Assembly (NCBI GenBank): GCA_046563655.1
Contig: JAJCTO010000014.1
Coordinates: 186,001-250,000, forward strand
Source of the DNA: Yuukianura sp. NJ FZ-2021
Lineage: Eukaryota
Reading direction: 5' to 3'
Length of the DNA stretch: 64,000 bases
Shown: positions 9,001 to 12,000 of the stretch, piece after piece
How positions within the stretch are numbered: position 1 is the first letter of the stretch
How the letters are laid out: each line of letters starts with the position of its first letter
Program-made: the position numbers and the translations under genes
Notes under the pieces: generated by a model
Databases searched by the model: none
What the model was told of the DNA's origin: nothing
What the model saw: only the letters and a program-made list of their open reading frames with translations

Positions 9001-12000
9001 AGTGATGACAAGTCGCGGTGTGTTTCCGAGGTACTCGTAGCCATACGGCAGCATTGAATTGATCATGCGCGTAATGATTTGCTGCTCTTCCCAGTAGTAT
9101 CTCAGTTGAGCCAACCATTGAAAATCCTTGACACTTGCGACATTGTTTTCAACTAGTTTGGCCAACACGTCTCTCGCATGGACGTCAAGTACAACCAAAG
9201 CTCCTAAATCCAAGAAAAATCAAAATTTCAAAATTCTGAATCCAATATGTCAGAAATACAAGAAAAAGTTCATGTTTTTCAGTTTCATACCTAGTGTTAC
9301 GCGGTTTTGTTTGCTCAACTGTCCTCTTACAAGAGCCACAATGTCATTGATTTGTTCGTTGTTGACATTGAGGTAATCCGCCAGCGCTGTTCCTCCCTTG
9401 CCCATTGCTTCATGAATTAAACTGGTCCAGTAAGTACAGGAGACGCAGAGGACAGGTTGTCCAGGCCAGATCAGAACCCACTCATTACGAGGTCGCAACA
9501 AATAGTCTGCTAGTGCTTCCGAAATTTGCTAAAACGAAAAATAAATCATGAATTTTTCAAAATAATTGCCAAAATTTTGGAAAAATTTTGAAGTTACCTG
9601 ATGGACGCTCTTCTTCATCAAATCTTCCAGTTCGACCAGCCACTTCTCAACGGCGCCCCGTGCTTGTTCCGTGTTAATCACTCCAACTAATTTGATAATT
9701 TCGCGTTCACTGGACTCCATGTGGGTCACTTCCAGGTCTTCCGTAAACGTCAGCCGTGCAATTCCTTCGAAGCATTTCTTCAAATGAGGTTGGACACTGC
9801 AAGAACAAAATTTCAAAATTTTCAAAAACTTTAACAGTAGAAGCAGGTTTCAAGAAATTTCCTGGGTATGAGTAAAACGAAAACCGAGAGAGTTTTTAAA
9901 TTTCGTTGATTTTTTTTTTGTCTAAAAAAAATTGACTAACCGTTTGGGATCTTTCGTTTCAGCTAGAATTTCCAGCAGTTCGTCATTGGACAAGAAGAAG
10001 AAGCGGGCGAACGTGAGTCGTTTTCGCTCTAGGTAGCCATTGAGTCCCTTCAAAATTTGCTCCAGTAGGTCATTGGCCTTTTTCAACTTTTCAACAACTT
10101 TGTCCATTTTGATAATCGAGAGGACTTTTGGATCATTGAGGATGTATTTCATGATTGAACGGTATGTCTTGTCCACGTTGATGAATCGTCTACCTTCCTC
10201 TGGCATCTAAAACACCAAAAAATATTTGTTAAAACAAAATTTTGAAAATTTTTTAGAAAAAGTCTCACCTGAGTCATGATATCTGGACTGCTAAAGATTG
10301 GTTCCAGGTACAACCAAGTCGTTTGAACTTTGAGCCATTCGTCCAGAATTTCTTGAAGTAAAACCAAATCTTTCTCCCAAGCAGTCATTTCCTCCAGAAA
10401 CGGCTTGACAAACTGCGATCGCAGCATCGTTTGTGTCTTGATGATATGATCATCCAGAAGTACTTGGATTTCATCTACACTTGAAATTACGTAAGTTCCA
10501 GTTTCACGGTAAGCTGTCAGAGTAAACACCATGTCAGCCCATTCCAGTTTCATTTTCTCCAGACTCTTCTCCAGGCTGAACTCCTTTGAAGCTGCTTCAC
10601 TAATCAGCTCAAACTTGGGCAAGTACTCTTCCAAATTCATGTCCAGCACTTTTTGAAGTGTAAGTTCTGGAGAAGGCCGGATAGGAAATCCAACAATTTC
10701 TGAAATCTTCTCCCAATGTCGATCTCTCAGTCCAGGATTTCCAAGTGTCTGGATAATTGGCATTTTCTCTTTGAAAACTTCAATTAGTTCTTTGATTTGA
10801 GTGACAAGGGCTTTTGGAATTGGTTGGTCATTGAACGTTTTTTCAAGTTTGAAGACTGTTCGGTAGAGGTTGCTGACGTCGAGGTCAATGAGGTCAGGGT
10901 CATACGTTCCGATTTGTGCTTTGGGTTCCATGTGATTTGGTCAGAAAGTGAAAAGATCAAAAGTGAAATGATCAGAAAAAAAAGGTCAGAAAAGGAAGGA
11001 ACTTAACCAAACCTAACCTGAGATCTTTTGAATTCTGACCTTTTCACTTCTGATCATTTCACTTCTGACCAAATATTTCTGACCATTTCACCTGCTACGT
11101 GTGCTTTGAGCCACATATCACGTTTCTCCAGAAATTCTACACCGGATTCGTAGAGGCGGAGATATGGAGCCAATTTGTCCGAGAGCTGAAAAAGCGAAAC
11201 AAAAATTGATTTAACACTGAAATCTTGAAAAATCTTAACTCACAATTTTTCGAAGTGGGTAATTAGTTGTTTCCCATCCAAACATTTCTTCTTCTCGGTT
11301 GAACTTGTCAGCTTTGTCCGAAGCTGCTTGCAACTTGGCATCCAACGTCTGCGCTCTCTTCAAATATTTTGGAAGATCTTCCAGGGTTCCAAAATTTTGA
11401 AATTCTTCCATTTGCTTTGCATAGGACTCCAGTTCCTCTTGAAATCGGATTCGCTTGAGCTATAGAAACTCAAAATATACATTTTTTTTTCGATTTTGAA
11501 ACGTCACTTTTCAAAATTTGGACAAACCTTCAACGCTTCTTGGAATTCCAACATTTTCTTGGCAACGATAGCTTCGTGCTCTTCAAAAACAGCGGGCATC
11601 CGATTGCACCACTGGACTGCTTGGGTCATCAGTTTGCATACAATCGGAGACAACTGGGTATAGTCCACAATGAACATGAACTTGCGCAGTAGTTCCAGTA
11701 CTTCCTTTTCCATAACAGGCAAAGTTTTTTCATAAATTTTTTCCAGTTCTTCTTTGAGCGAAAACAACTGCTCAGTATTCGTCGGAGTCCCGAGAGCCTT
11801 TTCACAAATAGCGTCATACTCATCTACGACTCTGAAAATATAAAAAATCAAACCAAAATTAGAGAATTTTGAACAAATTCTTCAATTTTTAACTCTTTTC
11901 AACTTACGCTTTGAGAGCTTGATGAAGTTCATGTACCATTTGATCAATAAGTTTGTCCCGGACATCAGCAGCTCGATGGGTTAGTGTTTGAATGAGCTCG

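Follow-up and report, generated by a model that had tools for sequence, protein, structure and literature searches.

Introners are non-autonomous DNA transposons that create introns, and they have been described in Micromonas, Aureococcus, dinoflagellates, and other organisms (Gozashti et al. 2022, PMC9860276; reviewed in PMC11282704). Often, the element contains one of the two splice sites and the target site duplication (TSD) contains the second, and an Aureococcus introner family is described in the legend of Fig. 2F as adding 12 nt, or four residues (PMC9860276). The same 2022 survey recorded introners in two animal groups only, and mostly in aquatic organisms (PMC9860276). Here we analyze a 64,000-nt stretch of DNA from Yuukianura sp. 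NJ FZ-2021 (contig JAJCTO010000014.1, positions 186,001 to 250,000; hereafter the window, in whose numbering all coordinates are given), in which a miniature inverted-repeat transposable element (MITE) interrupts a coding exon of a dynein heavy-chain gene. A first-pass annotation of the window had described the element as introner-like and capable of being spliced out in frame. We treat the locus as an exonic transposon insertion and a candidate nascent intron.

A second route by which a transposon can leave a message, SOS splicing, works in nematodes and in human cells (hsMar2 reporter) and involves the factors AKAP17A, CAAP1, and RTCB (Zhao et al. 2025, PMC12779559). In Caenorhabditis elegans, exonic Tc1, Tc3, and Tc4 elements are excised in this way, with an efficiency of 90 to 100% for Tc1 insertions; pairing of the inverted terminal repeats is both necessary and sufficient, while the internal sequence is dispensable (PMC12779559). 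The process is independent of the spliceosome; its cuts fall at several positions close to the repeats, most of them not GU-AG, and the product retains a small insertion or deletion (PMC12779559).

Two further groups of systems bear a likeness to the present locus. The MITE-derived non-canonical introns of the tunicate Fritillaria borealis and the nonconventional introns of euglenids share with it a MITE origin, duplication-like borders, and a pairing that joins the two ends (PMC11282704). They differ in being numerous and served by adapted machinery according to the review (PMC11282704), whereas the 35 neighboring introns of the dynein gene are conventional GT/GC-AG introns. In the Ds and dSpm alleles of maize and the Tc1 alleles of C. 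elegans, as might be the case here, an insertion allele is partly rescued in RNA through sites at the element ends, with small insertions or deletions; there the rescue was shown by complementary DNA, whereas for the MITE in the dynein exon it is predicted only. Judged by title or by the beginning of the abstract, none of the literature found by pairing Collembola with intron gain was on topic.

A MITE in a dynein coding exon

The exonic element, copy A, is a non-coding sequence of 176 bp (10924..11099, minus strand) bounded by a 9-bp direct repeat, TGTGCTTTG on the plus strand, at 10915-10923 and 11100-11108, the two copies being 100% identical (9/9 bases). Read along the sense strand of the gene, which is the minus strand, the upstream TSD copy (11100..11108) is CAAAGCACA, the element starts with CGTAGCAG|GTGAAA, and the downstream TSD copy (10915..10923) reads CAAAG|CACA and contains the AG (10920-10919) that could serve as an acceptor. 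The arms of the element are long, imperfect, and inverted, and are made of units of 15 nt (GTGAAA../GGTCAGAA); its outermost nucleotides (CGTAGCAG vs GGTTCCAT) are mostly non-complementary, and few of them are paired in the predicted fold. The GC content of copy A is 36.4%, compared with 42.0% in the flanking exon. Folding was compared with shuffled controls and was run both with flanks and on the element alone. As single-stranded DNA, copy A reaches −41.1 kcal/mol (z −7.8), a value that none of 200 shuffles equaled; for RNA, the fold reaches −82.6 kcal/mol (z −7.3) when flanks are included and −74.4 kcal/mol, with 61 predicted base pairs, for the element on its own.

The host is, by homology, an axonemal dynein heavy chain (a motor of sperm and cilia) of the DNAH7-like, inner-arm type, a subfamily label that comes from the source names of the homologues only (DNAH7 or DNAH3). 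The modeled part of the gene (60..12020, minus strand) comprises 35 ordinary introns and 3007 codons; farther upstream, dynein homology can be followed as far as about 13579, and at its other end the gene continues beyond the start of the window. Pfam matches include DHC_N2 (E 8.5e-71), Dynein_AAA_lid, AAA_7, and a sub-threshold Dynein_heavy (D6) domain. The intron positions were taken from a spliced comparison against up to 20 homologues, and the final set was verified by translation: 34 introns are GT-AG and one is GC-AG, their median length is 74 nt, and all 35 have a T-rich tract preceding YAG. The GC-AG intron (6034-5957, minus strand; CAG|GCAAGT) is supported by five homologues, and the 144-nt intron 9940-9797 showed no obvious hairpin or duplication on reading by eye.

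Copy A lies within the coding exon 10269..11185 (minus strand), which encodes part of the linker region (DHC_N2) and stands between introns 11243-11186 and 10268-10207. When the element, one TSD copy, and the introns are subtracted, the span 12020..60 yields the 3007 codons with 0 stops, and the resulting model is colinear with a homologue of 3994 aa (P0243) over 2995 columns, at 52.7% identity and with 20 gaps. The MITE insertion is the sole lesion in the modeled part of the gene. If the element were retained in the message, the sense frame would read through 15 foreign residues and then reach a stop, so the proposal that the element breaks an otherwise clean dynein frame is borne out.

A second copy of the element, copy B (2548..2708, minus strand; 161 bp), is located inside the ordinary intron 2752-2515 of the dynein gene and is flanked by a perfect 8-bp TSD of its own (2709..2716, with its partner at 2540-2547; GAAAGTTG on the minus strand). 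The two copies differ by 4 mismatches in 161 aligned bases (~97.5% identity) and by the deletion of one 15-nt unit from copy B, and their TSD sequences differ from each other. The surrounding intron is conventional, having been picked by nine of nine homologues, and is 238 nt long, or 69 nt if the element and one TSD are subtracted. Both copies are thus small (176 and 161 bp), lack coding capacity, have inverted arms, and carry a perfect TSD, as expected of MITEs. Each terminal pattern of the element matches exactly copies A and B in the window, against chance expectations of 0.02 and 0.00. Because a second copy with its own TSD exists and the terminal patterns match exactly two places, the MITE represents a repeat family; it is a true non-autonomous DNA transposon of small size, bounded by TSDs, and not a chance hairpin. 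The perfect repeat, the hairpin fold, and the second copy together uphold the description of a 176-bp MITE with a 9-bp TSD in a dynein exon.

Mutator-like elements (MULEs) typically have TSDs of 9 to 11 bp, along with long terminal inverted repeats and a related autonomous element that encodes a MuDR-type transposase, and TSDs of 8 to 9 bp are also compatible with hAT, P, or Merlin elements. The label “MULE-like” of the first-pass annotation is supported by one 9-bp TSD and by nothing else seen here; the other TSD measures 8 bp, no diagnostic terminus was found, and the 23 open reading frames (ORFs) of the window that were scanned against Pfam yielded no DNA transposase. The two-end pattern of the MITE matched nothing in the contig collections for metagenomes, viruses, and prokaryotes.

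Both MITE copies present in the 64 kb are situated in the same dynein gene, 8.4 kb apart and in the same sense orientation, and their TSDs both read xAAAG at positions 2 to 5, again in the same orientation (n = 2). With two copies, the shared gene, orientation, and xAAAG motif could stem from local hopping, from a preference for certain targets, or from a bias toward the gene.

The insertion site is empty in related sequences. Matching homologues number 119; the site is covered by 110 of them, and in 108 of those 110 the alignment is gap-free at the junction. The closest relatives in a set of 5.8 billion proteins have 90% and 81% identity, and the closest named one, from the springtail Folsomia candida, 73%; that set contains no protein of the same species (best match 90%), and none of the collections searched yielded the species. 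Four of the seven close proteins examined cover the junction (P0121, P0127, P0149 from Folsomia candida, and P0172), and all four read straight through it. At the DNA level, the metagenome contigs L002 (90% protein identity) and L001 (83%) are contiguous across the site. The comparison with orthologues, which had been proposed as a check on the first-pass annotation, accordingly returned empty sites throughout L001, L002, and the four proteins. The emptiness of the orthologous sites marks the insertion as new; it does not by itself make the element an intron. Since the TSD is perfect, copies A and B are near-identical, and the orthologous site is empty in relatives, we take the insertion to be young, having arrived, on this comparison, after the lineage split from the two closest available relatives (L002 and L001).

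Intron positions also vary over about 1000 codons of dynein among the three close relatives (the window, at 11243-11186, 10268-10207, and 9940-9797; L002, at 881-975 and about 3572-3715; and L001). The intron at model residue 211 (window 11243-11186) occurs in the window only, and those at residues 401 and 1057 occur in L002 only; the intron at residue 455 is missing from L001 and that at 543.7 from L002. These differences suggest that introns have been gained or lost rapidly in this lineage.

Candidate splice sites and the fate of copy A in the message

A canonical removal of copy A would pair a candidate 5′ splice site, GT at 11090..11091 (minus strand; CAG|GTGAAAT), located 8 nt inside the element, with a candidate 3′ splice site, AG at 10919..10920 (minus strand; CCCAAAG|CA), in the downstream TSD. 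Excising 11091..10919 (173 nt), so that 11092 is joined to 10918, leaves an addition of 12 nt and the reading WLKA-HVAA-QIG without a stop, exactly as the first-pass annotation had calculated.

Other ways of excising the element were considered and rejected. The pair 11069-10873 deletes 4 residues, keeps 30 nt of the element, and has a weak donor, and the remaining in-frame GT-AG pairs would cost 17 to 90 residues of the conserved linker. A U12-type intron was rejected as well, the donor GTGAAA being unlike the U12 consensus.

We consider that copy A probably represents a recent insertion allele and not an established spliceosomal intron. The strength of the candidate sites was assessed with weight matrices trained on the 35 introns of the dynein gene itself, the real sites being scored by leave-one-out. 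Acceptor 10919 scores −12.42 bits, under all 35 real acceptors (4.0 to 15.7), and 570 of the 643 other AGs in the gene score at least as high. It has an A at position −3, found in 0 of 35 real sites (21 C, 14 T), and two T in the interval −20 to −4, where real acceptors have 7 to 14. The donor GT and a branch-like CTGAC motif are both paired in the predicted hairpin stem. In the case of copy B, an 8-bp TSD would cause the same splice to add 11 nt instead of 12, so in-frame removal is not a built-in property of the family; for one splice pair, an in-frame outcome is a 1-in-3 event. Because the acceptor is poor, the donor and branch motif lie in the stem, the TSD at copy B is 8 bp, copy B sits in an old intron, and two copies are visible, the element does not look like an adapted intron. 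A young non-autonomous hairpin MITE making TSDs of 8 to 9 bp has thus landed in an exon that codes for part of an otherwise intact DNAH7-like protein in a springtail-like hexapod, and retention of copy A in the message would lead to a premature stop in dynein. As to the RNA itself, the outcome that we rate highest, though at less than even odds, is that the element is not effectively removed and that the allele is null or strongly weakened, possibly heterozygous or under relaxed selection. Should the element leave the RNA, hairpin-triggered excision would be at least as likely a route as the canonical splice.

Several observations weigh against a simple insertion allele, and most of them speak for a newborn spliceosomal intron, in which GT 11091 and AG 10919 would be used to give the main product, HVAA would be accommodated in the linker loop, the gene would remain functional, and the family would qualify as an introner. 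Among the in-frame GT-AG pairs checked, no other canonical pair leaves the protein intact, and an automatic search ranked it first among canonical joins with 6 of 11 homologues. The donor is strong: at 8.23 bits it equals or exceeds 23 of the 35 real donors, and its score is reached by only 3 of the gene's 578 other GTs. The CTGAC motif is placed 22 nt upstream of the AG, which is the first AG after it, and is itself preceded by a long T-rich arm. When P0121 (275 residues) was folded with 25 homologues (mean pLDDT, the predicted local distance difference test score, 90.8), the insertion site coincided with the beginning of a loop of seven residues (109-115) that connects helix 77-108 to helix 116-136, so that it is conceivable from the model that four extra residues in the linker loop would be tolerated, though 108 of 110 homologues keep the length at this point. 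The rest of the gene is intact. The xAAAG motif has an identical offset and orientation in the two TSDs, and the AG may thus be a regular product of target choice (n = 2); both copies are sense-oriented within one gene; and introns come and go between close relatives. For an element site combined with a TSD site and an addition of exactly 12 nt there is a published introner precedent (PMC9860276). Finally, the evidence for an insertion allele comes from the comparison of DNA, proteins, and predicted folds.

Set against these points are the acceptor, which falls short of every real one, belongs to the lowest 12% when ranked with the other AGs, and has an A at −3 and no adjacent T tract; the enclosure of donor and branch motif in a stem of −74 kcal/mol; the 1-in-3 chance of an in-frame result, together with the +11 nt expected from an 8-bp TSD; the constancy of length at the site in 108 of 110 homologues; and the finding that one of the two copies seen is not an intron of its own. 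On balance, we regard a newborn intron as unlikely. The introner-like splice sites of the first-pass annotation find support in the strong donor and in the sole protein-keeping pair and none in the acceptor score, while the introner mechanism keeps its published +12 nt precedent and is weakened by the visibility of two copies, one of them in a pre-existing intron. The wider comparison is similarly divided. Like introners (PMC9860276), copy A is short, non-coding, flanked by a TSD, and sense-oriented in a gene, with candidate sites in the element and in the TSD and a predicted addition of 12 nt; unlike them, the family is seen here as two copies, one in an older intron, and is known from DNA alone, its acceptor lies far below the host range, its TSDs of 9 and 8 bp would not reliably keep the frame, the element consists almost entirely of a long hairpin, and the host is a terrestrial hexapod. 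Still less likely, in our judgment, is the fuller scenario of a springtail MITE that combines a preference for xAAAG targets, by which its TSD would always provide an AG, with a strong donor of its own to give birth to introns, with HVAA accepted in the linker loop and the family contributing to the intron turnover among these relatives.

The other way in which the element could leave the message is hairpin-triggered excision independent of the spliceosome, as the main route, with non-GU-AG cuts near the base of the stem and joining by RTCB; the products would be of mixed frame, giving partial rescue at best. We hold this to be possible, if somewhat doubtful. Copy A is an exonic DNA transposon with base-pairing inverted repeats, as SOS substrates are; hairpin makes up almost its whole length (61 pairs, z −7.3), a poor acceptor would be no obstacle, and the published trigger is inverted-repeat pairing with a dispensable internal sequence (PMC12779559). 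Its minimal interior recalls the transposase-deleted Tc1 construct (PMC12779559), and the host gene is otherwise intact. Against this, the element belongs to another transposon family and its host to another phylum, the stem of copy A is continuous and does not consist of two separated terminal repeats, the features by which repeats trigger excision are undefined, and SOS splicing has not been reported in arthropods, PMC12779559 making no mention of insects or arthropods. A last reading, in which the dynein copy is a decaying duplicate or pseudogene that was already dead, the insertion being one lesion among many, would accommodate the stop that the insertion brings 16 codons into foreign sequence. 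This alternative, which the first-pass annotation had itself raised, is highly improbable: the 3007 codons contain no further stop or frameshift, GT/GC-AG borders are present at all 35 introns, and alignment with the full-length homologue is colinear, with 20 gaps in 2995 columns.

Other features of the window

A tandem repeat of ~245 bp, with units 93 to 99% identical, forms three blocks (45648-45944, 48270-50447, and 53911-54574). An ORF at 50949-53102 (plus strand) encodes 717 residues with Pfam matches to pentapeptide repeats and the SV2 luminal domain; it is composed of short tandem units (multiples of 15 to 90 nt, 82 to 96% identical; 50926-53078). Two coding regions of the Ty3/gypsy type are present, at 32782-36270 (plus strand) and 37502-43064 (minus strand). 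One of the two has an unbroken pol-like frame of 1162 residues (protease, reverse transcriptase, RNase H, and integrase), and the other consists of several frames (gag-like, reverse transcriptase, and integrase). Direct repeats of 220 bp (31830-32048 and 37315-37534), 96.8% identical, may be long terminal repeats.

A single 616-residue frame at 29664-31514 (minus strand) contains a 3′-5′ exonuclease domain (E 1.3e-22), and a shorter frame at 15277-15738 (minus strand) matches the end of the same domain; repeats of 200 to 400 bp near the exonuclease frames are shared with the 41- to 44-kb region. A weak match to DNA polymerase B of the organellar or viral type is found at 60036-60686 (plus strand; E 8.5e-4, under the Pfam cut-off), and close to the end of the window, at 62575-63066 (minus strand), a frame encodes a BIR (inhibitor of apoptosis) domain (E 4.6e-19).

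Significance for intron origin

The origin of spliceosomal introns has long been debated, and few very young cases are available from animals in which the transposon and its TSD are still intact. The locus described here offers a clean natural test, in that an exonic hairpin MITE in an intact gene of ~4000 residues is accompanied by a sister copy in an intron and by empty orthologous sites. If the allele is broken, it would amount to an ordinary insertion mutation and hold little interest beyond this gene. If the hairpin is removed independently of the spliceosome, it would be the first natural arthropod substrate of that route. If copy A is spliced, a poor AG supplied by target duplication would suffice to make an intron; and should the family prove to give birth to introns through its xAAAG targets and its own donor, it would extend introner-type systems to an arthropod living on land, beyond the lineages, aquatic for the most part, from which they have been reported.

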